Below are positions 6,400 to 60,773 of a stretch of 64,000 nt of DNA, piece after piece. Location: IMG/VR virus record IMGVR_UViG_3300027908_000024, positions 12,860-76,859 of that record; one strand, 5' to 3'. The notes under the pieces were generated by a model. The model searched no databases, was not told the DNA's origin, and saw only the letters and a program-made list of their open reading frames with translations. This stretch comes from a virus. Position numbers and translations under genes: made by a program. Numbering within the stretch: position 1 is the first letter of the stretch; each line of letters begins with the position of its first letter.

Positions 6400-6405
6400 G
6401 TTGAT

Positions 6406-41700: not shown

Positions 41701-42614
41701 TCAGCGGTTGGGCCGTTGAAGGCTTCCGGGAAGGACTTGTTCCATCTTGTGGGACCATGATCGCTGGAGGGGGCGCGGAGGATCTTGGCTTCGCTCATGA
41801 AACCTCCGATGACCTGTTGGGGACGGGGTTCGGCAAGAGGGGCGAGAGCCTTCACGATCATCGGGCTCAATCGCTCGTCGCCGACGCGACCTTTTTCAAG
41901 CGTTTTTCTGATCAGCGAAGAGGCACGCTTGGCGGCATCGCGGTACTGAGGCGGCAGATAGCCGGGTTTCATGTCGTCGGCAGTTTCGCTGCCGATGATG
42001 TTTTGCCGGCCGGTTGATGGAGATATTTTCGACCTGTCAAGTCCTGCATGCGCGTTGCACGGAATGCCGACGATCGACCATTCCAACAGTTTCCATTTCG
42101 TGAATCGTTGTCCGGCATAGGGATGCCCATGCAAGGCCGGCAAAGGTATCGGTTCGTCGATAAAATCGAATCCGATACTGCATCCCGGCAGCATTCCTTC
42201 GGCCACAAGTGCAAATATCTGACGGGCTTCCGGCAACGACTGAGTGAAATAACACCGCGCCGTGATGCGGTCTTCATGGAGCTTTACGGTCAGTTCGCCT
42301 TCCGGCGTTGCCGATCTGCCTATCGGAAGTGGGATATCTTGATGAAGACCAAAAACGACCGGGTTTGACTTATATTCATCCAGTACGCAACCCATCGGTT
42401 CGACAACATCGCCAACGCGATCTCTTGCATTGCTGCTGATCACAAAATCGGCGTAAAACTCTTCCTGGTTGACCGGCAGATTGTCGGTGCGAAGAGTCGT
42501 CAGTTGAAGCGCCAGGCTGGACTGGTGAGGCTGAACATAGCCAAAAACAGGCTGACGTTGCCTGTCGGCCAGGTCTTTTTTGAATTGCGGCGAGTAGTGT
42601 GCTGGTGAAGACAT
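38787..42614 (-). CDS. HK97-type prohead protease fused to a AAA+ ATPase and an acidic scaffold-like C-terminus
   Basis: Protease: DRVGDVV...PVVFGLH...GCSIGF...LLEWSIVGIPCN. AAA: GSPGNGKT (Walker A), LFIEDVD (Walker B), TTNFPERLPEALIDRPGRF (second region of homology). Confidence 0.88.
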   Translation of the reverse strand: MSSPAHYSPQFKKDLADRQRQPVFGYVQPHQSSLALQLTTLRTDNLPVNQEEFYADFVISSNARDRVGDVVEPMGCVLDEYKSNPVVFGLHQDIPLPIGRSATPEGELTVKLHEDRITARCYFTQSLPEARQIFALVAEGMLPGCSIGFDFIDEPIPLPALHGHPYAGQRFTKWKLLEWSIVGIPCNAHAGLDRSKISPSTGRQNIIGSETADDMKPGYLPPQYRDAAKRASSLIRKTLEKGRVGDERLSPMIVKALAPLAEPRPQQVIGGFMSEAKILRAPSSDHGPTRWNKSFPEAFNGPTAEASYDEPSPFPIENVPSRPSSVSYDWICRYVGCEIKNLWRNPTFIPAPRMGSFLTGLKGILAQYHLDDTRNIHRDGKESPPQFATIELNSTKRDDFLIDGAAFYKGNEPGRGTVRFVASFEPTFGGLELTILTSNVNHSIGDTILEKAWDWARTHNFLKGEAFALSGEFLDRTKETWDDVFLPDLNRQTLQRYVELINEKGVAFANRGCILTGSPGNGKTLSGRIIRNHAKATFIWVSSRDYHHSGSFGGTSLGFEMAKELAPSVLFIEDVDNWLSDTTVDLIKTEMDGISRSSGVLTILTTNFPERLPEALIDRPGRFHDVLHFDLPTPDVRRAMLAKWLPAVSQSDRDNAVTSSDGYSGAHVYELAAFAKTLSEHDGLTPDKALQEAIEKVKAQRELIDQIQLEGSNYSSFGSLRRRKSLIPGLVVCNSQATPAIFTKQQPPAIVKAAPKKPVRAVKMTTKAMMEGGGAMGGYGIPEGEKAYHRHVMEGIRECAKLHEPNSSDGLHHFHYHPESGSVHHVHGINAKPEHLSAVKKDLDSLNGVKKVIQQPKSGPVKEQGWWEAHPIDEKEQMLQHAPATVTGPKEPADKPQTTPEPTETPMKPDGAEAGKPNEAAIEKQLVIEKQATARVFARMPARMLKEYLKVMHLKASKDPALQECVSKKIPKLIDEGYPETQSQAIAYSMCGEGKSLCAAKKKDADAGPESVGGAEEAQDIDKQLTDQPELPHGAEFGQRMLEDIETFLGLCDDEMQRTFWEDVMNEAKEMYKSRYPEIDFGGETESESGNASQSGIAEDKLAPYRKPTIDTAKNGKVPNNKSKPPRQTKRLAKRHLGVFKAATDHMGDMAAMDPGDEFTRLHKSACAMHHKDMTSSLEEIDSGGAHEEGPEVPTAGKKTEPEKKPEEKTDEPKKDADKEGKEAQRELDEKSLKSLQAETKEFRTMQETGAQELKTRLDNLLISATGRMPDGYKG

Positions 42615-46510: not shown

Positions 46511-47101
46511 TCATTTCTCCACACCCCGGCCGTGTTCATCCCTGCTCTTGTGGTGACTCTCGGGATGGTGCGGTTTTTTCGGTTCGACGACGCCTTCGAC
46601 ATCGGGCACGTCCTCGACCTCGGTGGGGTTTTCTTCGTCACGCTTGCGCTTGTCGTCGTCTTGTTCGTCCTTGGGCTTGGCGAAACAATGGCCGTGTTCG
46701 TCACGCGAGCAATCGGAGAGGTTGTCGCCCCGGCGCTTGGTGATGGGTGCGAAAATGCCCTTGGCTTCGTCGGGTTCGTTGCTGGATTCTTCGCTCTCTT
46801 CGCCCTCGTCGGCCATGATCTCAGCAGCGCCGGCGCGGGCGGCTTCTTCATCCACGTAGTTGCCGTCCTCATCGCGCGGCATCTCCAGCAAGAACAGCGC
46901 GGCGGCAAGTTCCTGATCGGTCATGGAGTCGCGATCAGGCTTGGCCAGTTCCTTGCCATGCTCGTCGCGCGGGAGATCCTTCTTCTCTTTGGCCTGTTCG
47001 GCGCGGATCTTGTCCCAGGCTTTATCCAGGTCCGCTTCCTGTTCTGGGGTCAGTTCAATCTCTTCGGGCTGGGATTCGTCTTGCTTCGGTTCTGCGCTCA
47101 T
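46511..47101 (-). CDS. Acidic RDEHG-repeat protein; N-terminus is a candidate immunity peptide for the upstream GNAT-like domain
   Basis: 196 aa, ATGA overlap with the 2191-aa gene, 3 RDEHG plus 1 RDEDG. Confidence 0.7.
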   Translation of the reverse strand: MSAEPKQDESQPEEIELTPEQEADLDKAWDKIRAEQAKEKKDLPRDEHGKELAKPDRDSMTDQELAAALFLLEMPRDEDGNYVDEEAARAGAAEIMADEGEESEESSNEPDEAKGIFAPITKRRGDNLSDCSRDEHGHCFAKPKDEQDDDKRKRDEENPTEVEDVPDVEGVVEPKKPHHPESHHKSRDEHGRGVEK

Positions 47102-50100
47102 GCTGCCCTCCTACTGCTTGCCATGTAAGCCTCCAACACCTTCCGGCTCCGCGAGCCTTCCGTGAGATCGAATTCGGCCTGCGTCATGTCGCTGCCCTCA
47201 GACAGCCACCAGTCGGAACCGAGAATCACGGTGCGGTCCTTGACGGGCTTGCCCAACTGCCGGTCCTTGTCGGCGCAGTTCTTGCGGACACGCTCAGCTT
47301 CTACATCGTTGATATAGTGCGTCACGTCTGGCATTGCCATTATATCAAGAACGCTCTTGGCGTCGGGAAATCGCTGCTTGATTTTATTCTTCGTATTGTA
47401 ATCGAACTTATCGATCTTCTGATCGTAGCCAAAGCGCGGCCAGGTATAGTAGCCGTTGAAATCACCCTTCCTGAGACTAAAACTTCCGGCTGCATGGGTC
47501 GCGATGTAATCGAAGCCGTGATCTGCTCCGTTCTTGACCTCGCCACTGAAAATCTCGAATCCCAGACCGCCAGCACGGTATTCCTCCTTGATGACCAGAA
47601 GATTGTTGTGGATGAACTTCTTGCCTTTTTTATCGACGCCCAGGAATCGCGAGCAGCCATTCAGTTTCGGATGGCTGATCTGGACACGAATCCCGTGACC
47701 ATCAAGGGAATAATCCTCGCCCTTGCGCTTGTAATCGATGCTGGCGCCTTCTGGTACACCGATGATCTTGATGACCGTCTTGTCATCCATCTGGCCGAAG
47801 ATTTCATCGGCTTCCTTTTCGGTATCTCTTCTGGCCTGTGCTGGTCGCGCGGGTACTGGTCGCTGTGCAGGCGCGGCTGGTTGCACCGGGCGGGCTGGCA
47901 TGCGGTTATCGGTTGGCGCAGGTGTGGTGCCCGCCGCTCGTGAGGCATTCGCTGGATCAATGATGTCTCGCTGTCTTGCCTGCAAGCGTTCCAGTTCTTC
48001 CTCAGCAGCCACTACAACGGCGTCACGATCCCTGTCGCCCCAATGGGCCTGCATCCTCATTCTGCCGGTATCATCGAAAACCTGCCAGCGATAGACCGGT
48101 TCGCCCTGGCTATTGTGCTCCGTTGCGATCCGAACCGTCGCCTGCATGGCGCCGGCAGCGTCCACGATGGAGCCGATGGTATCGGGATCTGGCGCAGGCG
48201 ATTCATCTTCTGGTCCCCATGAAGCCGGCGACGATGCTCCCGCCGCTTCGGGTCGTGGAATGGGGAATTCCTCCGGCGCAGGAGTTAGCGCTGGAGTTGC
48301 CTGAGCGGCCTGGCGTTGATTGGTGTACTTGGCCAGCGTTCGTTGAGCGATGCGCTCCGCGTATTCGGCCTTGCGGCCACCGGAGGCACGCACGGCAAGT
48401 TCTTTCTTGACGGCCGTGATCTGCGGCCTGGTCAGACCGTTGAAGGCTGCTGCCAGTTTGGCCGGGGTGTCGAATCTTCCCGACTGCAATTCTCTGGTGA
48501 TGCGCTGCGCCAACTGTTGCGGACTTTCAACACCGTGGATCTGCGCATCGACCGGGATCTTGCCGCAAGCGATGCGGTTATTGCTGCTGTAGCAGATCCG
48601 CCTGCCAGCGGCATCACGGTTTTCAGAGAAACCACGAACATTGCCGTGCTCGTCACGAACTGCTTCGGGTCTTGGCGCTGGTGGTTCGGCAGGCTCAGCA
48701 GCCGTGGTTCGGCGCGATGAGCCTTCTGCGGATGCGTTTGGATTGCGCGCCGGCACGACCCGGCCAGAATCATTGAGCGTAAACCATCTACCAGAGGGGC
48801 CTTGCCAGACCTCGCCTTCGCGGCGCGGCGTCGTGGCTGCCTTGCGATAGAGGATGAGCGGATCAAGAGTCTTCAGGTTGCCGTGTTCGTCTCTGTCCAT
48901 CGGATCATCCTCTGTTGCCTGCCAACCATTCTTGCGCTCACAGGATTTTGTGATCGGTCGGCCATGAGGATCACGCTCGTCGAAGCGAGCCAGGGATTTC
49001 TCTTCGGACGATGGTTCCTCATCTTCCAGAATCGCAAACTTGTCGCGAAGGCTTTCGGAAACCTTGCTGATGGTTTCAAACATGGTTTCATCATAGTCTA
49101 CGGCAGCGCTCTCGAACGCTCCAAGGGCATCCTCATAGCGCTCTCCCGCCTTGTCGTTTCGCGAATCGGCGCGCTCGAATGTCGCTTCCCATTTCGCGAA
49201 GGCACGCTCATAGTTGTCCTGTAGTTTTGTTGAATTCTTCTCCCATTTAGCATAGGTCTTGTCGAATTCCTTGCTGGCGTTTTCGTGGTCGCGGTCAAGA
49301 CGTGCGACTTCTTTCTGCCAGGATTGCCATTCGGGTGTATTTTCTTCCGGTTCATCGGGATACTCTGGCTCGTCCGGTGGCTGAGGCTCATCTGGGATGA
49401 TCGGCGCTTCTGGTTCAGCGGCGCGTACCTCATCAAGAGCCTTGCTGGCTTCCTCTTCTGAGGCGGCGCGCTCAGTGAACTTTGAAAGCGCCTGCTGCAA
49501 CGCAACCCCATACTTGGTCGATGCCTTGCCGAGCGGAGTCAATTCTGCATGCGCATCCACTTCACGGAGCTTTTCAATCGCACCGTCGTAACTGGATACC
49601 AGAGCGTCCGCATAGTTTTGTGCCGCTGCGGTTATTTCGCTGGCACTGGCCTGACTTTGGCTGTATGCGGTCTTGAGTTCGTTGAAACGCTGTGCCGCCT
49701 CGTGCCGTTTATCTTGGCCGTCTACAAGATGCTTATCGGCAGCATCGACAGCATCTAGTGTGGCGTCTGCTTTCGTGGTCTGGGTCGTTGCTGGAGCCAC
49801 CGGTTCTGGCGCTGGCTGTTGAGGCACTTCTGGTTTGATCTCTGGAGTAACCTCTGCCGGCGCGGCTGGCTTTTGCTTTCCGGCGTACTGTTCACCGTCT
49901 GCCAGCGCCTGATCCTTGCTATCGCCCCATTGCCCCTGAGCGGCAAGTTGCCCGTCGTCGTAAAATGCTGCCCAACCGTAGACCGGTTTGCCGTCAAGAT
50001 TCCCTTCAGCGAGTCGGACCGAAACATTGCCCTGCGCGCCGCCATCAACCTTGCCGATGTCCTGGACGTAGCCACCATGCTGCACCTTGGCGGGATCGAT

Positions 50101-53100
50101 CTTCTGATCGGATTCTGGAGACTCCTCTGGAGGCTTCTTTTGTTCGATCTGGCGACCGTGCTCATCGCGCTGATCGGCTGATGCTGGCGGAGTCTGGGTT
50201 GGTTGCGCTGATTGTTGGCTTGCGGCTTGTGGAGTTGCTGGCTGCGACTGTCCGTTCGGCGAACAGGGATAACCTGTTTCCGTATCGTGATAGCGGTTTT
50301 GATCACCTTGTTCGTTCCTCTCACACGATTTGCGCCAGCGCGCGAGTGTATCAATCGCCTTCTTCTCCCCGACAACCCCAACCTCTGCCCATTCGCACGC
50401 TTCCCTGCTACAGCGCCGGCCGTCACCATCGGTCATCTCAAGCGTGGCTGCGCCACAGATCGGACAAGTGGCTGGCAATATACTCTTCTGCTCCAGCACA
50501 TGCTCTTCTTCGCTGGCCTCATGGTGTTCTTCCTTATTCTCTCCCGTGGCATTCTCAATAATTGCTGGTGTCAGTGCCTCAAGTTCCTCTTTGCTGAACA
50601 CCGGCCGATGAGAAAACTCCACCGCATTGGCGAGCGCGTGGGCCTGTGCGTAGGTCTTCTGATGATGCTTCATCAACAGGTATTCAGCATACTCATGCAG
50701 CGCGATCAGCGGAATCTCATCGGGTTCCGTGTCGGCCTCGATCCAGATTTCGCCGTTGGGTTGCCAGGGATAGACGGCCGGGTTCCCCCCTTCAAGCCAA
50801 TCGGTCTTGAAACGATCTCTGACCACTTCACCATCAACCAAATATATGTTGATCGGCTTGGCCGGATTGTCAGCGGTTCCCGAGCCGTCATCCTGAAGCG
50901 TGGCATAGTGCGAGACGTAGATGTTATCCGGCACGTCCCCACCAGCATGCATCTCGATCCCGGAGGCTTTCTCTCTCTCAGCTTTCTCCTTCTTGAGTCC
51001 ACGCTCGTAGGCTTCCGGACCCGATACGCCCTTATTTTCGGCGCGCTTGCGCGTCACGGCTTTGTCGAGGACGAACGGTAGCTCTTCTTCCGGCAACCTG
51101 TCAGAAATCCAGATGGCGTTCTCCGGTATCAGGTCCGGGAAGTCAGAGCGAATCGCCTCGATGCCGAATTCCTCATCATCGATGTTGAGATCGCGGAGCG
51201 TCTTGGCATCGATGATAAAGACCCGGTAGCCGGCATAGTCCATCAGGTGGCCGACCACACCGCCGAACGCAGCATTGGCAACATCTTCTGGTTTGCGAAC
51301 TGGCTCTTCTCCACTCTGATGGCTTACCGAAATACCTTGCGGCAGGCATCTTCCATGTTCGTCGCGGTCGCAATTGGCGAAAAACGAAGATTTGGCAAGT
51401 TGGCTTGCCAGACGTTTCGTCAGCAGATCCGCCAACGCATCGCCAGAGGATTGCTCACGCGCCCGGCCATGCTCATCACGCTCCTGGTGTTCATCCTCGC
51501 CACCTTCCGCATCGCCCAGGTCAAAATCAATATCGGCTTCTGGTGAGCCAACTCCCATCTCCAGGCTCTTCTTCTTTGGTTTGATATTCGCCTTGCCGCC
51601 ACGCGCAACAAACTTCTGCGCCGCCGTATCATCCATGAGCCGGACCGCATGATAGGCTTGCTGAAATAGCTTGAGCTTCTGCTCATGCGACAGCGACTTG
51701 CCGTCCTTGCCCTTCATCGCCTTGATCTGTTCCGCGATACCTTGAAGCGCTTTCTTGTGATGCTCGCCCATGTTGGCATTGAGCTTGACCTTAACTTTGA
51801 TCGAGTTGCCGTCCTTGCGCCAGCGCAGTGTATTTGGCTTCTGCGGTTGTTTGCCGGCAGAGGCAGATTCCTTGACCAGTTCCGGCCTGGTAACTTCGAC
51901 AACAGCCTTGTTCATGTCCTCCTGGGACTTGATTTCGCCTCGGTTGACCTTCTCCTGAAGTTTGGCCTCAGCCCACTCGGGGTTCTTGTCGCTGTTGGGA
52001 ATCGGCTGACCGTTCTGCACGGCCTGGAAATAGGGGCCGGCCGTGGTCTGGACGGCCTCATCGTGAGCCGCTGTAACGGCCTCTTGGAGCGCTTCTGGAG
52101 CGACGGCGTCCATTACCTGTGCTGTGTCTTTGAGGACATCGATATGATCGTTCGTGTCTGGGCGTAGCGCTATGCGACCATCAACGGAAAAAATATCCGG
52201 TGGTTTAGTGAATCCGGCAGATTCTTCGGGTATCTCGGCTTTATCTCCTAGAATCCAGCCTTTCTGCTTGAAAAACTCAGTCGCCTTTGGGAACTCTCGC
52301 TGAACCTCATTCATGGAAATCTGCGAGCCATAGAGCAATCTGGAAAATTCGGCTAAGGCTTCGCTCGGTGATGTGTTAGCATAACTCGTGAGCGACGCAG
52401 AATATTCGCCGAGATCTTTGCTCTTGTCGATAAATTCTTCCTGAAAAATATTGCCCCATTCCTCTGATCCGCTAACTGCATGCTTGCCTTCTGAACTATC
52501 GAGTGCATGGCCAAATTCATGGGCGTAAACTTCGTCCTCCAGTGATCCGGCAAAATAGCCATAGCGGCCGTAAAAGGCTTTCTCATTGCTGCCGTCAAGA
52601 TGAAGTTTGCCATTGGAATTATTGTAGCACCCGGCGACATTAACGGCCCCTTTGGCAACGCCTTCTCGCTGCGCGGTCAATTTCTCCCGGTATTCATCTG
52701 AGATGAATGAATTCTCCAACGCACCGTCAAGAACTGCAAGGCCAAGGGTTTTGTTGTCACCATAGAACTCTGTTCCGCCGTCGTTGCCCTTCTGGATCGC
52801 ATCAAGGACGGTTTGTGGCATCCTGGCGCTGACGCGGTCAAGTGCCGCGCCATAGGCTTTCTTTTTGGCGTCAGGCAGATTGCTTGAGGCCAGAGAATCA
52901 TGAATGCGTTGCATTCCGGTGTGGCGACCATTCTGGTCGGCGGATGCGTTTTTGCCCGCCGATACCTGCTGAGCGCCACTCCTGTCAGATGGCTGTTTTT
53001 GTCGGCCATGCTCATCGCGATCAGGTGCTGGTTCTTGCTTGCCTGACGGGTCACGTTCTACCGGCGATGGCAAGGTCTGATCCGTCTTGGAAGGAGCCTT

Positions 53101-53673
53101 CGCATTACCATGCTCGTCTCTTTGAGCGTTCGGATCGGCCGCCCATGTATTGTGCAGATGACCCTGAGAATCCTCGATGTTGACGCGCCAATGGCCGGGA
53201 GATGCCTCATAGGGCTGATCGGTTGGATGCGCTGGATCAGCGGTCGCTGTGCCAGATGTTGACGAGTCCGCCTTCGGCATGCCGGTAGCAGCGCTGGCGG
53301 CCTTGCGGAACGGAACCGTAACGCCTTTGGTTTTCGGCTCAATCGGTCGGCCGTGTTCATCGCGTGGCGATTCTTTATCACCGCCTCCCTCTTCTCTGGC
53401 CTCACTGGCTCTCAGATAGGCGCTCCGATAGGTATAGCGGAGGTTTCTCAGGAACGCTTCAGGACTGTCCTGAGACCCGATGAGTTGTCTGCTCTGTTTG
53501 TCCGATATGGGGTGCGCCAGGATGTTTCGCAGCATCAACGAATCTTCCGGCTCCAGCGCGAACGCGCCATCGCTGTAACGGATCTTGCCCGCCACTTCAT
53601 CCTGCCATTCGGGACAGCGGTAGAAGGTAACTTCCAGTGTCGGAGCGCTGGTTGTGGTGGCTGCTTCGCTCAT
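47098..53673 (-). CDS. Giant polyvalent protein: ATLF-like HExxH metallopeptidase, second HE domain, helical region, C-terminal GNAT-like domain
   Basis: 2191 aa. YAHEFGHALD...YANTSPSEALAEF (about 52170-52900); LHEYAEYLLM (about 50690); NNLLVIKEEYRAGGLGFEIF...GFDYIATHA...GYYTWPRFGYD (about 47100-47800); 8 RDEHG motifs. Confidence 0.8.
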   Translation of the reverse strand: MSEAATTTSAPTLEVTFYRCPEWQDEVAGKIRYSDGAFALEPEDSLMLRNILAHPISDKQSRQLIGSQDSPEAFLRNLRYTYRSAYLRASEAREEGGGDKESPRDEHGRPIEPKTKGVTVPFRKAASAATGMPKADSSTSGTATADPAHPTDQPYEASPGHWRVNIEDSQGHLHNTWAADPNAQRDEHGNAKAPSKTDQTLPSPVERDPSGKQEPAPDRDEHGRQKQPSDRSGAQQVSAGKNASADQNGRHTGMQRIHDSLASSNLPDAKKKAYGAALDRVSARMPQTVLDAIQKGNDGGTEFYGDNKTLGLAVLDGALENSFISDEYREKLTAQREGVAKGAVNVAGCYNNSNGKLHLDGSNEKAFYGRYGYFAGSLEDEVYAHEFGHALDSSEGKHAVSGSEEWGNIFQEEFIDKSKDLGEYSASLTSYANTSPSEALAEFSRLLYGSQISMNEVQREFPKATEFFKQKGWILGDKAEIPEESAGFTKPPDIFSVDGRIALRPDTNDHIDVLKDTAQVMDAVAPEALQEAVTAAHDEAVQTTAGPYFQAVQNGQPIPNSDKNPEWAEAKLQEKVNRGEIKSQEDMNKAVVEVTRPELVKESASAGKQPQKPNTLRWRKDGNSIKVKVKLNANMGEHHKKALQGIAEQIKAMKGKDGKSLSHEQKLKLFQQAYHAVRLMDDTAAQKFVARGGKANIKPKKKSLEMGVGSPEADIDFDLGDAEGGEDEHQERDEHGRAREQSSGDALADLLTKRLASQLAKSSFFANCDRDEHGRCLPQGISVSHQSGEEPVRKPEDVANAAFGGVVGHLMDYAGYRVFIIDAKTLRDLNIDDEEFGIEAIRSDFPDLIPENAIWISDRLPEEELPFVLDKAVTRKRAENKGVSGPEAYERGLKKEKAEREKASGIEMHAGGDVPDNIYVSHYATLQDDGSGTADNPAKPINIYLVDGEVVRDRFKTDWLEGGNPAVYPWQPNGEIWIEADTEPDEIPLIALHEYAEYLLMKHHQKTYAQAHALANAVEFSHRPVFSKEELEALTPAIIENATGENKEEHHEASEEEHVLEQKSILPATCPICGAATLEMTDGDGRRCSREACEWAEVGVVGEKKAIDTLARWRKSCERNEQGDQNRYHDTETGYPCSPNGQSQPATPQAASQQSAQPTQTPPASADQRDEHGRQIEQKKPPEESPESDQKIDPAKVQHGGYVQDIGKVDGGAQGNVSVRLAEGNLDGKPVYGWAAFYDDGQLAAQGQWGDSKDQALADGEQYAGKQKPAAPAEVTPEIKPEVPQQPAPEPVAPATTQTTKADATLDAVDAADKHLVDGQDKRHEAAQRFNELKTAYSQSQASASEITAAAQNYADALVSSYDGAIEKLREVDAHAELTPLGKASTKYGVALQQALSKFTERAASEEEASKALDEVRAAEPEAPIIPDEPQPPDEPEYPDEPEENTPEWQSWQKEVARLDRDHENASKEFDKTYAKWEKNSTKLQDNYERAFAKWEATFERADSRNDKAGERYEDALGAFESAAVDYDETMFETISKVSESLRDKFAILEDEEPSSEEKSLARFDERDPHGRPITKSCERKNGWQATEDDPMDRDEHGNLKTLDPLILYRKAATTPRREGEVWQGPSGRWFTLNDSGRVVPARNPNASAEGSSRRTTAAEPAEPPAPRPEAVRDEHGNVRGFSENRDAAGRRICYSSNNRIACGKIPVDAQIHGVESPQQLAQRITRELQSGRFDTPAKLAAAFNGLTRPQITAVKKELAVRASGGRKAEYAERIAQRTLAKYTNQRQAAQATPALTPAPEEFPIPRPEAAGASSPASWGPEDESPAPDPDTIGSIVDAAGAMQATVRIATEHNSQGEPVYRWQVFDDTGRMRMQAHWGDRDRDAVVVAAEEELERLQARQRDIIDPANASRAAGTTPAPTDNRMPARPVQPAAPAQRPVPARPAQARRDTEKEADEIFGQMDDKTVIKIIGVPEGASIDYKRKGEDYSLDGHGIRVQISHPKLNGCSRFLGVDKKGKKFIHNNLLVIKEEYRAGGLGFEIFSGEVKNGADHGFDYIATHAAGSFSLRKGDFNGYYTWPRFGYDQKIDKFDYNTKNKIKQRFPDAKSVLDIMAMPDVTHYINDVEAERVRKNCADKDRQLGKPVKDRTVILGSDWWLSEGSDMTQAEFDLTEGSRSRKVLEAYMASSRRAA

Positions 53674-55154
53674 AATTTTGCCTCCGATCCCCAGACTTCA
53701 TCGAAGCCATCAGGCTCTGCCAGATCGGGCAGTTCGTTGATCTTCTTGTACTTTCCCGAAAGAGCAACGTCCCATCTCTTTTTCGTGAACGCGATGGAAG
53801 GCTCGTCAATGCCAAGACGTTTCAGTTCGCTCTCAACCTCCGGCCATTTCTCCTTCATGCCCGTGATGTCCGGCATCGGCAGGCGCTTCTTCCTGGCATG
53901 ATCGGTCAGTGCCACAGTACGGAAGTCCTTGTAATCTCCGGCACCGGAGGGGAAAGACAGGCCGTTGTCGATCAGGACCAATTTATCCTCTCCGGTCAGC
54001 ATCCAGTTGGCCCAATGGCGATCGCCGTTGCCGGTCAGGTAATCAAAAAGCGCTGCGCGAGCAAGGTCATGCTCGCCGTCGTATTCGTCGCCGACATGGA
54101 AGTGAACTGCTTCCTTGGCACCGCTGACCCATTGCTGAATACTGCCCTGTTTGCCGTCGTGCTCCCTTACAGCCGTGGCTGGCACCAGATCGGCAAAGCC
54201 AAGCAGATCGGCCACCGCGCTGCTGGCCGCTTCCCGTAGATAATAGGTGCCAGCCTTGATGCCGTCACGAAGTCCAGGATCTTCGCCATCGACTGGTTTC
54301 CAGACACCGACCGTGCCGTCCTCCAGTTGGACCTTTTCGCTCTTGTTGGCACCACCGCCCAGGTTGGTTGCCTTGGCGATCGGCGAAGTGGTCAGGCGCT
54401 CCAGAACTTCTGGCCGTGATGGCGTGCTGGCCTCAGATGGGCCAGAAGTCTTCTTGGCGGCGGCGCGTTTTTGTTCGAGGTAGTCTTTTCCTTGCTGAAG
54501 CGCTTCTGCCTTGCCAAGGCTCCAATCCGAACCATCGATTTCTTCGCCGGTTTCGTTGTCGAATGCTGCCCAGCGGAACACGGGTCCGGATTCGTGATTG
54601 CCCTTCTGGAGAATCACCTGTTCGGTGATGTCTCCCTCGGAGTTGGTGATATGACCTAACTCAGCGCCGCCGGCATAGGTGACGTTCTCAGGATCGATCT
54701 CGGGCGCAACAGCCGGTGGCGTGACGGCCGTGGGGTTTGTCTGCGAGGGCTGAACATCGACCACGGGTTGAGCGGGACCGGTTTTGTCGGGCTGCGCTTC
54801 CGCTACAGCATGCGCAGCCGGTGCCGGCTGCTGCGCCTGACCATTCGGCGAACACGGATGCCCCAACTCATCATGAAACCGGTTCGGATTGCCATGTTCG
54901 TTCCGCTCACAAGATTTCGTGACCGAACGGCCATGCTCATCACGCGCTGAAGGCTCATCACTCTTCGGCGCTTCTACCTTGGGCTTCGGCTTCTTGCGAT
55001 CACCGATCCGCCGGCCATGCTCGTCACGAACCTCCAGCGCCAGGCCGATCATCTTGGCGATGCAATCGGCCTCCAGGTCGTCGCCGATGAAGCGCTCAGC
55101 GGCGGATCGTTTCGATTTGCTCTCTTCCTTGTCGGTAGGCACAGCGGTTGCCAT
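53670..55154 (-). CDS. RDEHG-repeat protein with a C-terminal PI3/4-kinase/HipA-like kinase domain
   Basis: GVWKP, YYLREAAS...LVPAT, GSIQQWV, FDYLTGNGDRHWANW, VLIDNGLSF. Confidence 0.8.
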   Translation of the reverse strand: MATAVPTDKEESKSKRSAAERFIGDDLEADCIAKMIGLALEVRDEHGRRIGDRKKPKPKVEAPKSDEPSARDEHGRSVTKSCERNEHGNPNRFHDELGHPCSPNGQAQQPAPAAHAVAEAQPDKTGPAQPVVDVQPSQTNPTAVTPPAVAPEIDPENVTYAGGAELGHITNSEGDITEQVILQKGNHESGPVFRWAAFDNETGEEIDGSDWSLGKAEALQQGKDYLEQKRAAAKKTSGPSEASTPSRPEVLERLTTSPIAKATNLGGGANKSEKVQLEDGTVGVWKPVDGEDPGLRDGIKAGTYYLREAASSAVADLLGFADLVPATAVREHDGKQGSIQQWVSGAKEAVHFHVGDEYDGEHDLARAALFDYLTGNGDRHWANWMLTGEDKLVLIDNGLSFPSGAGDYKDFRTVALTDHARKKRLPMPDITGMKEKWPEVESELKRLGIDEPSIAFTKKRWDVALSGKYKKINELPDLAEPDGFDEVWGSEAKL

Positions 55155-55156
55155 GA

Positions 55157-58100
55157 TTAAACCTCCTCCAGAAAGACGAGCATCTTGGCACGCTTCGATC
55201 CGTAGCCATCGGAATTCTTGATCGCAATATCCTCGCGGACGCTGACGATCTTGTAGCGCGTGCCAGCCGCCTGGATAACCTCGTCCTCACCCTTGTTCTC
55301 CGAGATGGGATCGACAAACAATCCCGTCTTGGCCTTGATAGCGAAGAAGAACCGGCCGTAGCCGTTATCGGTGGAGAAAGTATCCCAGGCATACTTGGCG
55401 TTCAGGCTCGAAGAGGCGATGAAGCCCATCTCGAAATCGGCCCCGGTGTCGCGCGCCTTCTCGATAGCGCTCACCAGTGCATCATGGGACGCCTTCCTGG
55501 ATGGACCAACGCCACGAAACAGCGCGTTGACCGTATCGGGCAACGGCCCAGCTTCCCGGATGGCGCTCTGGATTGCATCAAAGGTAGCGCGATCACGGGA
55601 GTCCAGACAGTTGAACTCAGGTGGGCAACTCTTCAGTTTGTCGTTGAACTGCTTGTAATCTGATCCAGTATAGAACCGGATGGCGCTTTTCTGTTCGCTC
55701 GACAGACTGTCCAGATGGTCCTCGAAATCACGGAATACGGCAGCGATGCTGGGTTTGGCCGGCATGCGGAACACGGCAGCAGACATTTCCTCTTCGGTCC
55801 AGTGTTCCGTCTTGTCTGGTGTGTCGCCCTCGTCGTCGTAATCGGACCCGCTATAACTGATGTCGTCATCGGGCGGCTCGGGCTCAGGCTCATCGTTCTC
55901 TTCCGCATAGGATCGTCCATCCGATTTCGCCTCGCTCCTGTCATTCGTCCAACTGCCGGTTTCCAGTTCGTTTCCTGATTCATCTTCGGCAACCCAGCGG
56001 TAAACATCGATCGGTTCGGAATCCTCTCTGTCTGGGAACGGGTTATAGGTTCCATGTTCCAGATAGACAGAAAACTTTTCCGATTCATCGTATGCCTGGT
56101 AGGTCGTGTAATCGGCCAGGTAATCGCGGTCCTCGTATTCAACCTCGCTCTCGTCAATCGAGCCGTCCCATTCGCCGTTCTCCTCCTGTTCTTTCTTCTT
56201 TGCATTGGTCTTGTCGATCTCTTTCTGTTTGGCCATCAGTTGATGCAGTTTTTCCTGCGCCTGAGACAGCACGTCCGGCATGCTGACGGACCACTCGCCG
56301 TTGAGGCGCAGAGTTCCCTCATGGTCGTGGACTTCCCAGCGATGAACGGTCTGGCCGTTGACAGTGCTTGACTGAATGCTGATCGTGGCCTTGGTTTCGC
56401 CGTCGGCATCCACGACCTTGCCGGCAACACCGCCGGCTTCTTCCTTGGCTGGTTCTGGCTTGTTGGCGGCGGCCGTCTGTTTCTTCAATTCTGCCTCAAC
56501 GGCCGCGACGGCTTCTGACTTATCGGCCGTCCATTCGCCGGTTGCCAACACCTTGTCCTTCTTGTCAACCACGTCCCAACTGAATACCGACGTTCCATCA
56601 TGATCTCCGGTGATCAGCATGCCGTAGGCAAGCGAAGCGCCCTTGTCATCGAATGCCGTTGCCTGGTATTCGGAACTGGTTATCTTTACCTTCTCTGGAT
56701 CAATGACCGGAATGGCGAACGGCAGATCGCTGGGTTTTTGATTCGCCTGCTGGTTCAGTTCCTCTTCCGCGCCAGCAAAAGTGGCCAGCGCTTGCGATGG
56801 AGCCTGTCCGGCAGGATTGGCCGGAGCGGACTGTTGCGCGTTGGGATTCTTGGCCGGAACCACATGGTTCTCATCGTTGAGCGTGAACCAACGTCCGCTC
56901 GGACCCTGCCAGACCTCGCCTGGCTTTTTTGGCGCATCGTCCTTGACGCGCAGGATCAACCGCCCGTGTTCGTCTCGGGTCGGACTGGTTCCTGGCTCGG
57001 TTGCGAAGAGGCTTTCTGCTCGGCTTTTCGCCGTGCCGTTTCGGCCGTGACTTCCGGCATCAGTTCCGGCCTGGCTTCTGCCTTGTCGGTGAGTTCCTTC
57101 AGGAGCGCCTGTTGGTCGTCCGTGAGCGTCCCGCCCTGGCCAAGATGCTGCTTTATCTGGTCGAGATTGTAGGCGTCGAGCATGAATTGCTTCTCGGCCG
57201 ACAAGCCCTTCTGCGATGTCAGCGGGAATTTTTCCGGATTCATATAGTCCGACAGTTTCATCGGTCAGTTCCTTCAGAAGTGCTTCTTCATCGTGGTTCT
57301 GTGCTTCCAGATACTTGACGGCTTCTTGCCTGTCCTCGATGAGCCTTGCCTTGCCGAGTCCCTGATTGTTGTCGATCACGTTGGCCGGTAGATCGGTTCG
57401 GCGCTTCAAGAGATCGATCGCGGTCTTTCTGGCGCTGATGTTGGCCTTGACGGCTATGCGGATCGGCACCGTGCGGGCTGGCTGGCCCTGTTGTCTGGCC
57501 TGAAGCGCTCTACTCACCACGCCGCGCCAGGCTTCTCTTGGTTCTCTGTCAACGAAAGTATACTGTGCGTCGAAGCCTTCCTTAATTGCCAGGTCCAGGT
57601 CCTGCTCCACCTTCCTCGGATCAGCCCCGACCTGATCATAACGCAACGGGTAATCGGCTGCATCGAAGAACTGACCCAGCGCTGTGCCCTTCCCAGAACC
57701 GCCGCCGCCGGAAAGCACCATGACGGTGTTGTTTCCCGATCCCTTCATCTCCTTCAAAAGTTCGCTGTAGAGCTGATAGTTCGCCTCGCCGGCCGCGCTC
57801 TGAAACAACGCCGCGTTGGTGCCCTGATAACCTGGAAACAGGTCGCGCCACTGATCGGTATCAAGGCAGACGCTCTTGAGCTTGTCGCCGTCGAACGTCC
57901 CCTGGCGCCGAAGGTATTCCTGGCGCAGGTAGGGGAATTCCTGCTGGGAAATCCTCTCAGCCTCTGCCTTGATCGTGCTGTCGTCAACCTTCGGCCGGCC
58001 GTGCTCGTCGCGGTCGTGGTTTGTGGCCGACAGATCAGAAGTTCCATCCTGGGTCGCGTTTTGCTGTTCGTTGGGATTCTTGGCCGGGACAACGTGATTT

Positions 58101-58231
58101 TGATCGCTGAGCGTAAACCATCTTCCAGACGGCCCCTGCCAGACTTCTCCCTGACGTTTGGGAGTGTTGTCCTTGCGCAAACCGGCAAGAGAATCTCTCT
58201 TGGCTCTTTCTTGGATGGTTGCGCTGGTCAT
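55157..58231 (-). CDS. Polyvalent protein: zeta-toxin-like P-loop kinase plus C-terminal ADP-ribosyltransferase (VIP2/Alt-like R-S-E clade)
   Basis: VMVLSGGGGSGKGT (P-loop); AIRFYTGSDYKQFNDKL, LFRGV, FIASSS, GEDEVI. Confidence 0.85.
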   Translation of the reverse strand: MTSATIQERAKRDSLAGLRKDNTPKRQGEVWQGPSGRWFTLSDQNHVVPAKNPNEQQNATQDGTSDLSATNHDRDEHGRPKVDDSTIKAEAERISQQEFPYLRQEYLRRQGTFDGDKLKSVCLDTDQWRDLFPGYQGTNAALFQSAAGEANYQLYSELLKEMKGSGNNTVMVLSGGGGSGKGTALGQFFDAADYPLRYDQVGADPRKVEQDLDLAIKEGFDAQYTFVDREPREAWRGVVSRALQARQQGQPARTVPIRIAVKANISARKTAIDLLKRRTDLPANVIDNNQGLGKARLIEDRQEAVKYLEAQNHDEEALLKELTDETVGLYESGKIPADIAEGLVGREAIHARRLQSRPDKAASWPGRDAHGRPTGAPEGTHRQGRSQAGTDAGSHGRNGTAKSRAESLFATEPGTSPTRDEHGRLILRVKDDAPKKPGEVWQGPSGRWFTLNDENHVVPAKNPNAQQSAPANPAGQAPSQALATFAGAEEELNQQANQKPSDLPFAIPVIDPEKVKITSSEYQATAFDDKGASLAYGMLITGDHDGTSVFSWDVVDKKDKVLATGEWTADKSEAVAAVEAELKKQTAAANKPEPAKEEAGGVAGKVVDADGETKATISIQSSTVNGQTVHRWEVHDHEGTLRLNGEWSVSMPDVLSQAQEKLHQLMAKQKEIDKTNAKKKEQEENGEWDGSIDESEVEYEDRDYLADYTTYQAYDESEKFSVYLEHGTYNPFPDREDSEPIDVYRWVAEDESGNELETGSWTNDRSEAKSDGRSYAEENDEPEPEPPDDDISYSGSDYDDEGDTPDKTEHWTEEEMSAAVFRMPAKPSIAAVFRDFEDHLDSLSSEQKSAIRFYTGSDYKQFNDKLKSCPPEFNCLDSRDRATFDAIQSAIREAGPLPDTVNALFRGVGPSRKASHDALVSAIEKARDTGADFEMGFIASSSLNAKYAWDTFSTDNGYGRFFFAIKAKTGLFVDPISENKGEDEVIQAAGTRYKIVSVREDIAIKNSDGYGSKRAKMLVFLEEV
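56956..57261 (-). CDS. Nested out-of-frame ORF inside the 1024-aa gene, candidate antitoxin for the zeta-like domain
   Basis: 101 aa with a protein-like composition, AAGGA RBS 7 nt upstream, starting exactly at the end of the P-loop domain. Confidence 0.55.
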   Translation of the reverse strand: MKLSDYMNPEKFPLTSQKGLSAEKQFMLDAYNLDQIKQHLGQGGTLTDDQQALLKELTDKAEARPELMPEVTAETARRKAEQKASSQPSQEPVRPETNTGG

Positions 58232-59618: not shown

Positions 59619-59829
59619 CTTCTTGCTCCAGTGCTTCTTCGATGGCCTTGATCCACTGTTTCTGTTCCTCGACGGCGTATTCAACCTTGAGGCTCAACTG
59701 CGTCTTTTCCAGATCATTGAGCGGTTCGGCACGCCATCTGGTTGTTTCTTGATGTGCCTCATAGGCGGCTTGGCCCAACTCGCCGATGCGGCCAAGCGCT
59801 AGACGGATCATTGATTTGAGGTTATTCAT
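59611..59829 (-). CDS. Hypothetical protein
   Basis: 72 aa, helical, coupled. Confidence 0.5.
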   Translation of the reverse strand: MNNLKSMIRLALGRIGELGQAAYEAHQETTRWRAEPLNDLEKTQLSLKVEYAVEEQKQWIKAIEEALEQEDE

Positions 59830-60773
59830 GCGGCATGCACCGTGGTTCTCAACCGATCCGCCAACGCGCCGATCTCTTCAGCCATGACCAGATTCATCAG
59901 CCACTCTCTCGGGATGCCATCTTCCCCGTAGTAGGCACCGGCCAGTTGCCCGACCACGGCAGCGGTGGTATCCGCATCATCGCCCAGATTGGCGGCAAGC
60001 AAGACAGCATCTCGGAAGTTGTCGGTCTTCAGGAAGCACCAGCAAGCCGCCTCCAGACAATCCACCACATAGCCGGAGCCGCTAATCTGGTCAATGGTCT
60101 TTTCCCGGTAGTCGCCCTTAAATATCCCCTGAATTTTTGGTGCGAGCGGCTTGACTTCTAGGAAGTCGAAATAGTCATCCTCGAACAGCAGATCATGCTT
60201 GCTGTTGCCCGACAGCGCGGCGAAAATCAGATCGCACAACAGCCGACAAGCATCGAGGCACAGCACGGAACCATGCGTAGTGCGCGAACTATCTTGCGCA
60301 GCCGCGATGGCGGCTGGCAAGCCCCGCCCGAGGTAGAACATCGGGATCGGTGCCAGTCGCATCAACGAACCGTTGCCCGAAGTGTTGAGATCCGTCGAAC
60401 CGCTGAACGGATTACCGTTGGCCTCGAAATGTCGAAGTGCCCGCGCCGTCGTCTGGCCGATGTCGAAGCACTTTCCTGTGCTGGAACGGAAGCCATGCCG
60501 CCACCAGTCGAGGTAGCGCTTCATCTGATCGTGGGCGCTAAAGCCGCGATGTTCGATCAGCGAATCCGCCAGACACAGCGCCATGCTGGTATCGTCCGTC
60601 CATGCCCCCACGGGCAGATGGAACGGTCCACCACCAACCATGTCAGTGAGTGGCTCAAAACTACCACGCGACATAAATTCTACCGTGGTGCCGATCGCAT
60701 CACCGACCGCCAGGCCAAGCAGACAGCCACGGAAACGCGAGGCGAGTGAGGGGCTTTTGGTTTTCATCAGCAT
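59826..60773 (-). CDS. draG: ADP-ribosylglycohydrolase (DraG/ARH family)
   Basis: GCLLGLAVGDAIG, WTDDTSMA, GNGSLMRLAP, SSRTTH, GDDADTTAAVVGQLAGA. Confidence 0.92.
   Translation of the reverse strand: MLMKTKSPSLASRFRGCLLGLAVGDAIGTTVEFMSRGSFEPLTDMVGGGPFHLPVGAWTDDTSMALCLADSLIEHRGFSAHDQMKRYLDWWRHGFRSSTGKCFDIGQTTARALRHFEANGNPFSGSTDLNTSGNGSLMRLAPIPMFYLGRGLPAAIAAAQDSSRTTHGSVLCLDACRLLCDLIFAALSGNSKHDLLFEDDYFDFLEVKPLAPKIQGIFKGDYREKTIDQISGSGYVVDCLEAACWCFLKTDNFRDAVLLAANLGDDADTTAAVVGQLAGAYYGEDGIPREWLMNLVMAEEIGALADRLRTTVHAA

Follow-up and report, generated by a model that had tools for sequence, protein, structure and literature searches.

The locus consists of four genes on the minus strand (58231-46511) of the window, by which we mean the whole 64,000-nucleotide stretch of viral DNA analyzed here. 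The source record (IMG/VR IMGVR_UViG_3300027908_000024) is an incomplete phage record of 79 kb and about 65% complete. The genes are co-directional and translationally coupled, and they encode the polyvalent effector proteins P0001 to P0004 (Table 1). The N-terminal segments of P0002, P0003 and P0004 are referred to as hA, YLRA and hG, respectively.

Table 1. Genes, domains and segments of the four-gene chain and its surroundings. Positions are those of the window.
Feature	Position	Strand	Remarks
P0001, first carrier, 1024 aa	55157..58231	-	GRWF motif, RDEHG motifs, internal zeta-like P-loop domain, three small beta domains, C-terminal R-S-E ART
Zeta-toxin-like P-loop domain, internal in P0001	~57949-57197	-	Pfam Zeta_toxin, E 2.5e-8, above cutoff; Walker A GGGGSGKGT
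Nested ORF P0128, 101 aa	56956..57261	-	alternative frame of P0001, just downstream of the zeta-like domain
ART, end of P0001	55744-55160	-	Pfam ADPrib_exo_Tox, E 6e-12, residues 837-1002 of 1024; terminus FLEEV, then stop
P0002, second carrier, 494 aa	53670..55154	-	hA, three RDEHG-type motifs, beta domain, C-terminal PI3/4-like kinase
hA segment, first 42 aa of P0002	55029..55154	-	contains ..ESKSKRSAAERFIGDDLEADCIAKMI..; begins 2 nt past the ART stop codon
Kinase, end of P0002	54371-53673	-	Pfam PI3_PI4_kinase, E 2.5e-7
P0003, third carrier, 2191 aa	47098..53673	-	YLRA, ten RDEHG-type motifs, internal HEFGH metallopeptidase-like domain, Zn ribbon, beta domains, C-terminal GNAT-like domain
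YLRA domain, first ~95 aa of P0003	53389..53673	-	ends PEAFLRNLRYTYRSAYLRA; start overlaps the kinase stop codon (ATGA)
HEFGH metallopeptidase-like domain, internal in P0003	~52566-52264	-	Peptidase_M90/ATLF-like, E 3.6e-4 when scanned as a piece, below the Pfam cutoff
GNAT-like domain, end of P0003	47826-47101	-	
P0004, last link, 196 aa	46511..47101	-	hG and four RDEHG-type motifs
hG segment, first ~44 aa of P0004	46970..47101	-	acidic Trp helix ELTPEQEADLDKAWDKI; start overlaps the GNAT gene stop codon (ATGA)
Prohead protease (S78) fused to AAA ATPase	38787..42614	-	places the chain in the head module
Two capsid genes, after the S78 protease-AAA gene	38371-37007 and 36168-34735	-	head module
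ADP-ribosylglycohydrolase gene	59826..60773	-	Pfam ADP_ribosyl_GH, E 5.9e-82; PHROG 6572

The junctions P0001/P0002, P0002/P0003 and P0003/P0004 are a 2-nt gap, an ATGA and a second ATGA, and a GGAGG-type ribosome-binding site is present at each. This is the layout described in the original prediction, which was made from the letters of the DNA. The same prediction held that every enzyme domain ends its ORF; this applies to the ART, the PI3/4-like kinase and the GNAT-like domain but not to the zeta-like domain of P0001 and the metallopeptidase-like domain of P0003, which are both internal. It was right, on the other hand, that unique N-terminal segments stand ahead of the RDEHG repeats; the first RDEHG-type motif lies at residue 43 in P0002, 104 in P0003 and 45 in P0004. 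The four ORFs contain 19 RDEHG-like motifs; the window translated in all six frames has just one more exact RDEHG. P0004 consists of hG and RDEHG-type motifs, and no enzyme domain was detected in it. The idea that the ORF breaks are sequencing errors in one giant gene was rejected: a separate ribosome-binding site and start codon are present at every junction, and unrelated contigs have gene boundaries at the corresponding places.

The S78 protease-AAA gene and the two capsid genes lie directly downstream of the chain, and the ADP-ribosylglycohydrolase gene is located 1.6 kb upstream of it. No portal family was recognised in the phage's own record, which is about 65% complete. Searches with P0002 and with residues 1-110 of P0003 found no close relatives in phage GenBank records or IMG/VR. 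P0015 was rejected as a separate relative; it is a near-identical, truncated copy of P0003.

We compared the chain with the polyvalent proteins (Iyer, Burroughs, Anand, de Souza, Aravind 2017, PMC5512222), which the parts of that account used here describe as giant multi-enzyme proteins that are encoded among head genes and are presumed to reach the host together with the DNA. The same parts list ART, protein kinase, GNAT and zincin peptidase domains in a head-gene setting, as found here. Two or more unrelated effector-type domains on one polypeptide occur in P0001 (zeta-like and ART) and in P0003 (metallopeptidase-like and GNAT-like), and virion or packaging genes are neighbors, namely the S78 protease-AAA and capsid genes in the window and a portal gene in the relatives of the kinase. 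There are also differences. The kinase is of the PI3_PI4/SCO1664 type, whereas these parts of the paper describe a truncated Ser/Thr kinase clade; furthermore, they do not report partner modules after the terminal enzymes or the fusion of such modules to the next protein.

The original prediction had assumed a polymorphic-toxin setting. The locus is instead a phage head-cargo (polyvalent protein) array and not a secreted toxin locus. The position of a module directly after the terminal enzyme is shared with the MuF polymorphic toxins known from temperate phages (Jamet et al. 2017, PMC5576092), in which a portal-adjacent, head-associated carrier ends in a C-terminal toxin, ARTs included, and a small downstream ORF is proposed as immunity; as described below, the modules of our locus also have stand-alone small ORFs as relatives. 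Unlike the MuF systems, the window contains several carriers in series with the putative immunity modules fused to the next carrier, and no MuF domain (PF04233/PF06152) was among the Pfam matches of P0001-P0004 at E ≤ 0.01.

The kinase and the YLRA domain provided the most detailed data. The kinase of P0002 has an intact G-loop (GGGANK), the Lys, DRHxxN and IDNG, and it is assigned to PI3_PI4_kinase in Pfam and to the SCO1664 family in NCBIfam. A PDB profile search with it returned PI4K type 2, Fam20 and mTOR; HipA_C was not matched in Pfam or NCBIfam. The YLRA domain itself comprises about 85 aa. An exhaustive search (alignment A1) yielded a family of 102 members, of which about 80% are stand-alone proteins of 74-160 aa, mostly 80-90; in 100 of the 102, YLRA is stand-alone or at the extreme N-terminus. 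A DNA-pattern scan based on a tighter alignment retrieved a single locus from GTDB genomes and another from JGI metagenomes; IMG/VR yielded none. Searches of Pfam, NCBIfam, PADLOC and PDB sequence profiles gave no match to the YLRA sequence, and no sequence link to HipS or Couple_hipA was found. An Atlas feature search with YLRA gave no usable match.

YLRA adjoins the kinase in all 13 kinase copies, which are distributed over 12 distinct loci (the window, L003, L004, L005, L006, L007, L008, L009/L010, L011, L012, L030/L031 and L032, the latter with two copies). In most of these it is downstream and co-directional; L004 and L005 have it on the opposite strand in convergent orientation, and L007 is the only locus with YLRA ahead of the kinase. 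In none of the 13 copies are kinase and YLRA joined in cis. In L004, L005, L011, L012 and L032 this kinase comes directly after the portal or forms one protein with it. On the bacterial contigs L030/L031, which have no nearby phage genes, YLRA is found beside a stand-alone kinase.

The YLRA domain was modeled with a pLDDT of 92.6, and the complex with the kinase was predicted with an ipSAE of 0.87 as compared to 0.04 for the best control. Of 80 solved complexes, 58 attain the mark used for complex scores, as do 2 of 110 mismatched pairs; these counts are only approximate here because the analysis used its own alignments. Three runs had at least 92% of contacts in common, with a partner pLDDT of at least 84. 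In the predicted complex, YLRA residues 79-91 contact the G-loop, V45, Q101/W103/V104, the DRHxxN loop and the Asp of IDNG. The model thus predicts that the conserved tail of YLRA (Y-x-S-A-Y-L-R-A) plugs the ATP cleft of the kinase. The predicted pair structure that the original prediction had proposed as a check was therefore obtained for the kinase, and the structural support for neutralisation, itself from modeling, is confined to this pair.

A fold search of 48,161 chains (VIA) with the YLRA model returned HipS as the top two hits, both weak, namely 7vkb_B from Legionella (Z 4.0, rmsd 3.3, 65 aligned) and 7ab3_B from E. coli (Z 3.8, rmsd 3.8, 71 aligned). A search of the ESM Atlas led to Couple_hipA clusters with TM 0.47 and 0.52. 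Foldseek gave no match below E 0.3 against the PDB, and the AlphaFold DB clusters returned only uncharacterised proteins of about 90 aa. The modeled likeness of YLRA to HipS is hence weak, with Z about 4 and TM about 0.5.

Couple_hipA is the N-subdomain of HipA, and in HipA this subdomain belongs to the active enzyme. Its appearance among the weak fold matches suggests an alternative, in which YLRA is the required, activating subunit of a split kinase, equivalent to the HipA N-subdomain, and the ART and GNAT peptides are substrate-targeting or activating tails. The strict one-to-one pairing in all 13 copies would suit an obligate subunit. However, the predicted tail fills the G-loop, the hinge-side residues and the catalytic loop, which is where ATP is expected to bind, and the lack of a single cis fusion would be surprising for a plain subunit, given that nearly all other parts of these proteins are found fused. 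Moreover, where HipBST is split, HipS as a free piece is the antitoxin (PMC9325769, PMC10627512). We therefore regard an activating role of the modules as unlikely, even though the hG helix described below is mostly found in cis, like an integral part of its domain.

HipS blocks ATP binding in HipT (PMC9325769), and the pair in the window resembles HipBST (PMC9325769, PMC10627512) in that a protein of about 100 aa lies beside a kinase of the wider HipA/PI3-4-kinase-like fold class and, according to the prediction, blocks the ATP site. It differs in the lack of sequence similarity, in the mostly kinase-first gene order and in the phage-cargo context. No HipB-like HTH gene was adjacent in the loci that were read, and the HipBST gene order B-S-T does not occur there. 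The predicted YLRA plug is the C-terminal tail, which differs from the HipS contacts described in PMC9325769 and PMC10627512. With these differences in mind, we infer that YLRA probably inhibits the kinase, and the chain of enzymes and antidotes in the original prediction would then be largely correct.

The predicted interface between kinase and YLRA is large, with about 100 contacts, and all three modules of the window sit on carriers with the same RDEHG motifs; fused forms occur again in L003, L009, L011, L012, L028 and L032. These findings would also fit a train of docked proteins, in which each C-terminal enzyme binds the N-terminal module of the next carrier non-covalently for ordered co-packaging and co-ejection. 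The predicted contacts, however, center on the catalytic cleft and not on a neutral surface. Most YLRA proteins, and the hA and hG peptides that occur as ORFs of 40-56 aa, have nothing to tether, and the opposite-strand copies of YLRA in L004 and L005 as well as the pair on L030/L031 also speak against docking. Docking as the explanation of the modules is in our opinion improbable, but docking and inhibition are not mutually exclusive in this phage.

The second pair is formed by the ART of P0001 and the hA segment. The Arg, Ser and E-x-E residues are invariant among the ARTs (alignment A4), and by its sequence the ART is of the R-S-E type with the catalytic residues of an active enzyme. A word-based search with the ART region returned only the query itself. 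In one family, all five ART copies end in [FY]LEEV directly before the stop codon, and all five are followed by a KFxGD.EA..[FI]..W/M peptide. There are three stand-alone cases of 40-49 aa, with ORFs of 47 or 49 aa in L009 and a 40-aa ORF in L013; in P0120 of L009 and in P0002 of the window the peptide forms the start of the next carrier. Alignment of the hA segment of the window with the post-ART peptides of L009 (three copies) and L013 gave local scores of 42, 37, 24 and 37 (shuffle p 0.0004-0.09), and none of 5000 shuffles reached the summed score. No other N-terminus among the genome's 86 ORFs scores as high as this segment. It was missed by an HMM of the three L009 peptides, so the link rests on pairwise scores, shuffles and position, and the match to L009 and L013 is marginal, with a shuffle p of about 1e-3. 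A separate observation concerns L003, which encodes a NUDIX-ART protein.

By position and motif, hA is a candidate small binder of the ART, and the upstream ADP-ribosylglycohydrolase is a candidate enzymatic eraser of its modification. A similar set is known from the Bxa-Bsi-BAH system (Alexei et al. 2024, PMC11699363), in which the prophage ART Bxa is neutralised by the small binder Bsi and by the ADP-ribosylhydrolase BAH. Both have a phage-borne ART, a nearby ADP-ribosylhydrolase gene and a small non-enzymatic neighbor. In our locus, in contrast, the candidate binder, with just some 40 aa, forms the N-terminus of the next carrier, and the hydrolase gene lies upstream.

The third terminal enzyme is the GNAT-like domain of P0003. 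Its best fold matches in the PDB are all acetyltransferases, albeit weak, and a homologue (P0123) carries PF00583. The hG helix follows 12 of the 18 GNAT-like copies examined. It lies in cis with the GNAT-like domain in P0014 (twice), L016, L017, L021, L022, L023, L024 and L026. L014 and L025 encode it as a stand-alone ORF of 48 or 56 aa, and in L028 the next carrier starts with it; it is absent from L015, L018, L019, L020, L027 and P0123. In a model of the cis form, the helix has a pLDDT of 83-93 and lies beyond a disordered linker; in the window, the stop and start fall in the linker between GNAT and hG. Because the helix is mostly in cis and absent from 6 of the 18 copies, a regulatory or structural tail is favored, and to judge from these sequences hG looks more like a tethered regulatory helix that was split off in this phage than like a separate immunity protein.

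The position of this break, in a linker between parts that form one polypeptide in most relatives, could mean that the whole layout is without functional meaning. In this case an ancestral polyprotein gene would have been cut at arbitrary linkers by stop and restart, and the segments would be ordinary linkers or domain tails; the carriers are indeed fused and split differently in every lineage. This explanation appears very improbable. The ART ends at the same LEEV residue in five copies, the modules occur as independent small genes, and the boundary of kinase and YLRA is a gene boundary in each of the 13 copies, with YLRA sometimes upstream or on the other strand.

Together, these comparisons bear out two expectations of the original prediction, namely that the N-terminal segments should have stand-alone homologues beside the same enzyme type and that they should co-occur with the cognate enzyme in unrelated contigs. 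The former are about 80% of the YLRA family and the hA and hG ORFs of 40-49 and 48/56 aa; the latter holds for 13 of 13 kinases, five ARTs and 12 of 18 GNAT-like copies. Judged from sequence, this recurrence of all three segments is beyond chance. The further claim, that a cognate module has become fused to the next carrier, agrees with the stand-alone homologues, but it fits hG less well, since hG is mostly in cis with its enzyme in relatives.

The two internal enzymes deserve separate mention. The orthologue of P0001 in L009, P0129, has 49% identity in the zeta-like domain and 35% in the ART. The nested ORF P0128 matches an alternative-frame sequence of L009 (L009:1900-2154) with 42% identity over 88 aa (E 4e-17), and over the same DNA the alternative-frame alignment between window and L009 scores 175 versus 89 for the main frame. 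Both copies of the nested ORF are preceded by a ribosome-binding site. P0128 gave no Pfam match at E ≤ 1 and no usable Atlas match; known from its ORF, it is a candidate partner of the zeta-like enzyme. As in epsilon/zeta systems, a zeta-type P-loop kinase domain would thus lie beside a small, separately translated protein. Epsilon is a normal gene encoded upstream of zeta, whereas the small ORF here is overprinted within the carrier gene, on the downstream side of the zeta-like domain, and matches no Pfam family. For the internal metallopeptidase-like domain of P0003 no partner was identified, and this counts against the explanation preferred below.

The explanation that we prefer, and consider probable, is that the segments are cognate inhibitory binding modules encoded after each terminal enzyme and fused here to the next carrier of a head-cargo train. 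The four genes would then encode a train of phage head-cargo proteins bearing host-modifying enzymes, i.e., a zeta-like kinase, an Arg-type ART, a PI3/4-like protein kinase, a zincin peptidase and a GNAT. A dedicated binding module would be encoded right behind every enzyme that terminates a polypeptide, with coupled translation. Many relatives have such a module as a tiny gene of its own, and the fusion of all three to the N-terminus of the next carrier would have created the daisy chain. Most likely the modules would keep the enzymes inactive during synthesis and packing in the producing cell; in the case of the kinase, the HipS-like YLRA domain would do so by laying its conserved tail into the ATP cleft. 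After ejection, the inhibition could be lifted by dilution, by unfolding in the tail channel or by proteolysis.

Two considerations count against a role as inhibitors. Enzymes made late in the lytic cycle may need no antidote, and a module fused to RDEHG-bearing carriers would be co-packaged and co-ejected with its enzyme, which would defeat the inhibition unless the two are separated. A more speculative form of the preferred explanation, which is possible but rather doubtful, would turn this fusion to use. The same N-terminal module would both silence the enzyme and hook it to the next carrier, so that a fixed series of effectors is packed inactive and armed when ejection unfolds, dilutes or clips it; the zeta-like domain would be locked by the overprinted gene. 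If this were true, kinase and YLRA would represent an undescribed HipS-like kinase-inhibitor pair that is widely distributed among phages and occurs, as a module of two genes, on bacterial contigs too.

Enzymes in the phage particle act in the first seconds of infection, which raises the question of how they stay harmless during synthesis and packing. The locus offers four candidate enzyme-partner pairs for this question: the kinase with its HipS-like plug, the ART with a 40-aa peptide and a nearby hydrolase, the GNAT with a Trp helix and the zeta-like domain with an overprinted gene. The kinase-YLRA pair forms a family of about a hundred clusters without annotation, and many uncultured phages have it beside the portal. 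Should the modules inhibit, they would be compact and specific protein inhibitors of kinase and ART folds. They would also aid the annotation of the many small ORFs and unusual N-termini found in polyvalent-protein loci. That a partner is fused to the next carrier suggests a way to order and co-package cargo. In the best reading, the locus extends the themes of phage toxin-immunity and of polyvalent proteins by a new arrangement, in which the modules are fused to the next carrier.

The carrier series consists of the four minus-strand genes P0001-P0004 (see the table), and the claim under study concerns the last three. Their source is a linear IMG/VR virus record of 79,204 bases (completeness ~65% by CheckV), whose minus strand carries nearly all of its genes. 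The successive junctions are a 2-nt gap, an ATGA and an ATGA, with a GGAGG-type ribosome-binding site before each, which indicates that these are separate, translationally coupled genes. The possibility of one giant gene split by sequencing errors is ruled out by the junction types and by the genes' own ribosome-binding sites.

By its setting the series is not a secreted polymorphic toxin locus but belongs to the head-cargo arrays of phages known as 'polyvalent proteins' (PMC5512222). Downstream of it are the gene of an S78 prohead protease with a fused AAA ATPase and then two HK97-type capsid genes; an ADP-ribosylglycohydrolase gene (Pfam E 5.9e-82) lies 1.6 kb upstream. The S78-AAA fusion, which contains a complete AAA module (Pfam AAA, E 7e-16), is unusual for a protease of head maturation and might have a part in how the giant cargo is processed or unfolded.

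Coordinates of the features in the window and in related loci
Feature	Location	Strand	Size or remark
P0001	58231-55157	-	1024 aa
P0002	55154-53670	-	494 aa
P0003	53673-47098	-	2191 aa
P0004	47101-46511	-	196 aa
P0128, just after the internal zeta-like domain	57261-56956	-	101 aa, alternative frame of P0001
S78-AAA fusion	38787-42614	-	1275 aa, single ORF
Small ~70-aa domain	P0001 ~residues 510-780; P0002 ~150-230; P0003 ~1190-1260 and 1820-1900		
Exact RDEHG outside the carriers	15630-15644	-	within ORF 15366-15740
Cys-flanked motif, window	51346-51372; 46685-46711	-	
Cys-flanked motif, other loci	L003 (P0014 ~residue 1975); L009 (P0129); L029 (P0123 N-terminus, ORF at 7261)		two copies in P0129
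~30-aa motif	58118-58141; 56888-56911; 48784-48807	-	three copies
Portal, NUDIX and kinase, then YLRA carrier	L012:1856-6001		first three in a single 1381-aa protein
Portal / kinase / YLRA...kinase / YLRA...	L032:1-7119		two-link chain
YLRA after stand-alone kinase	L030/L031, 3001-4096		kinase of 274 aa
YLRA just upstream of kinase protein	L007, ~5800-8396		Myxococcota MAG
ART frame without stop after LEEV	L013:4001-5071		runs on for 167 low-quality codons
hA ORF	L013, 4573-4695		frame other than that of the ART

The junctions and the three N-terminal segments had been described correctly. The statement that every enzyme domain ends its ORF was wrong, since a zeta-toxin-like P-loop domain in P0001 (Pfam E 2.5e-8, scanned as a separate piece) and a HEFGH metallopeptidase-like domain in P0003 are internal. 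P0001 ends in an R-S-E ADP-ribosyltransferase (ART; E 6e-12). The terminal domain of P0002 is PI3/PI4-kinase-like (Pfam E 2.5e-7; SCO1664 family in NCBIfam, E 1.5e-13); it has an intact G-loop, Lys, DRHxxN and IDNG, and PI4K type 2 is its nearest match among solved sequences. P0003 ends in a GNAT-like domain; PF00583 is present in its homologue P0123, and the top PDB fold matches of a modelled relative are all acetyltransferases, albeit weak (E 1e-3 to 1e-2). A small domain of ~70 aa (..G.PV[YF]RW...G.W.D...A..) is present in about seven repeats, one directly before each terminal enzyme domain.

The segment after the kinase, i.e. the first ~95 aa of P0003, belongs to a family that we call YLRA. 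With residues 1-100 of P0003 as query, exhaustive searching by HMMER recovered 102 cluster representatives, ~80 of which are stand-alone proteins of 74-160 aa. Apart from two doubtful matches, the others begin with the domain; those found downstream of it include ART, S78+2H, 2H+His-phosphatase, ATLF-like peptidase, GNAT and sigma-70. Their alignment (A1) defines a clean ~82-aa domain with the C-terminal end PExFLRNLxxxYxSAYLRA.

YLRA adjoins a kinase of the same family in every locus read; these loci, 12 distinct ones including the window, hold 13 kinase copies, all of them paired and never in cis with YLRA. In L003, L009/L010, L011 and L012 YLRA is part of the giant protein that comes next. 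It stands alone just downstream of the kinase in L006 and L008, and in L004 and L005 it is a stand-alone gene that converges from the other strand on the kinase 3' end. In L007 YLRA immediately precedes the kinase protein, and on the bacterial contigs L030/L031 it comes after a stand-alone kinase (HMM E 7.9e-9); L032 contains a two-link chain. Stand-alone homologues beside the same type of enzyme, for which the original prediction had proposed a search, were found in L004, L005, L006 and L008. The kinase relatives are also associated with the portal, being fused to it in L012 and encoded directly after its gene in L004, L005, L011 and L032. On bacterial contigs (L030/L031, L007) kinase and YLRA form a plain two-gene module, which in one case has GNAT, HTH and M23 peptidase genes around it; the few kb inspected there showed no phage genes. 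This organisation recalls that of a chromosomal toxin-antitoxin pair.

YLRA was modelled with high confidence (pLDDT 92.6), and its predicted complex with the kinase has an ipSAE of 0.87, compared with 0.04 for the best of three controls. In the calibration 58 of 80 solved complexes attained this mark, as did 2 of 110 mismatched pairs; the counts are a rough guide only, as our own alignments were used. At least 92% of the contacts are common to three runs, with a partner pLDDT of at least 84. In this complex YLRA residues 79-91 (RYTYRSAYLRASE) contact the kinase G-loop (LGGGAN), V45 (which precedes the conserved Lys by two residues), Q101/W103/V104, the loop DRHWAN and the IDNG Asp; the predicted site of the tail is the nucleotide and substrate cleft.

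A Foldseek comparison of the YLRA model with the PDB gave no match. In an exhaustive VIA search of 48,161 chains the top two were HipS antitoxins, 7vkb_B (Z 4.0, rmsd 3.3, 65 aligned) and 7ab3_B (Z 3.8, rmsd 3.8, 71 aligned), with the HipA N-subdomain lower in the ranking (Z 2.8); an independent ESM Atlas shape search returned Couple_hipA clusters (TM 0.47 and 0.52). These fold matches are weak and alone prove nothing, but they point toward HipS, the only small protein known to keep ATP from binding to the kinase encoded beside it (PMC9325769; PMC10627512). YLRA has no sequence link to HipS and, unlike in HipBST, the kinase here is not a member of HipA_C. The predicted position in the cleft, the resemblance to HipS, the occurrence as independent small genes and the opposite-strand placement in two phages make inhibition the most likely, putative role of YLRA. 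Alternatively, the modules may tether carriers for co-packaging, which may also be true of the fused form alongside inhibition, or they may act as a split subunit or an activator.

The ART of P0001 is followed by hA, the first 42 aa of P0002. The ART family is tight; its five copies, of which L009 has three and L013 and the window one each, all end at [FY]LEEV. The first L009 protein is the P0001 orthologue (49% identity in the zeta-like domain, 35% in the ART). A 49-aa ORF, a 47-aa ORF and the N-terminal part of a peptidase carrier of 459 aa follow the three L009 ARTs and share the reading ..SKF[VA]GD.EEA..FL[KR]WL.. In L013 a 40-aa ORF (..DKFSGGDDEAQAISDWLDKQ..) begins 3 nt past the ART match. 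The ART frame there runs on past LEEV; the sequence may be in error at this point, or the two frames may truly overlap. Window hA (..ERFIGDDLEADCIAKMI..) fits the motif: its local alignment scores are 42/37/24/37 (shuffle p 0.0004-0.09), the summed score was reached by 0 of 5000 shuffles, and hA is the best of the genome's 86 ORF N-termini (140 vs 98 for the next). An HMM from the three L009 peptides did not detect window hA. We consider the link moderate, resting partly on synteny. In the Bxa system a prophage ART is neutralised by a small binder plus an ADP-ribosylhydrolase (PMC11699363), a direct precedent for an ART; the window likewise has an ADP-ribosylglycohydrolase gene. Inhibition is only one possibility for hA, as it is for hG, the first ~44 aa of P0004.

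The GNAT-like domain also occurs in 14 IMG/VR loci, L003, L028 and P0123. An acidic helix, [DE][DE]x[IL]xxx[IVT]W, is located 30-70 residues after it: in cis in nine copies (P0014 twice, L016, L017, L021, L022, L023, L024, L026), as an independent ORF (48 or 56 aa) in L014 and L025, and as the beginning of the following carrier in L028 and the window. It was not seen after six copies (L015, L018, L019, L020, L027, P0123). In the modelled cis form the helix (pLDDT 83-93) is preceded by a disordered linker. As the helix is mostly in cis, hG is most aptly described as a tethered accessory helix, split off in the window's lineage.

P0128, an ORF nested in P0001, is kept in L009 at the same relative position and in the alternative frame (42% identity over 88 aa, E 4e-17). 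Over the same DNA the alternative frame aligns with a score of 175 vs 89 for the main frame, which is low-complexity sequence, and both copies have a ribosome-binding site. P0128 has no Pfam match. The conservation, frame scores and ribosome-binding sites thus indicate that a small separate protein is encoded directly behind the zeta-like domain as well, the one internal enzyme for which a classical antitoxin is known as precedent (epsilon/zeta).

P0001-P0004 contain 19 RDEHG-type motifs. The only other exact RDEHG in the window's six-frame translation lies in a frameshift extension of the tail assembly chaperone (..GAERDEHGHVVTE..). Since a chance 5-mer is unlikely in 128,000 codons, the motif may bind a factor common to head cargo and tail assembly. 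A longer Cys-flanked motif, S[YF]F(A/E)xCxRDxxGxC(K/L)PxG, is kept in at least four phage lineages, and the plain repeats found here resemble a form of it that lacks Cys and has proliferated. The L009 lineage (P0120, P0129, P0121; P0023 and P0028 in A1) has a short repeated linker motif, GPSPF(L), in place of RDEHG, which hints that the modules are separated by tags or cleavage sites that differ between lineages. Three copies of a ~30-aa motif (GEVWQGPSGRWFTLND..VVPA.NPNA) are present in the window, one at the very N-terminus of P0001; a related sequence (..TETGRWYVVDPQTGHVKPTKAP..) occurs in L003.

The simplest account is that each terminal enzyme would have a cognate binding module, produced in step via translational coupling, and that in this phage the modules would be fused to the next carrier. 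The proposal of immunity modules fused to the next carrier is supported in part, by the recurrent pairing, the fusion and the predicted kinase-YLRA complex; inhibition is the most likely role only for YLRA. Caution is called for on two counts: a late lytic gene may need no antidote, and a co-packaged inhibitor would have to part from its enzyme after ejection. As pure inference, this could occur by dilution from capsid to cell, by unfolding in the tail channel, or by clipping by the protease or the internal peptidase.

Phage head toxins with small immunity ORFs, polyvalent proteins and antidotes of ARTs and kinases are already known (PMC5576092, PMC5512222, PMC11699363, PMC9325769). What is new is an unannotated YLRA family strictly paired with a phage kinase, putative mini-peptide partners of the ART and the GNAT-like domain, an overprinted candidate partner of the zeta-like domain, and the serial fusion of a partner to the next carrier.
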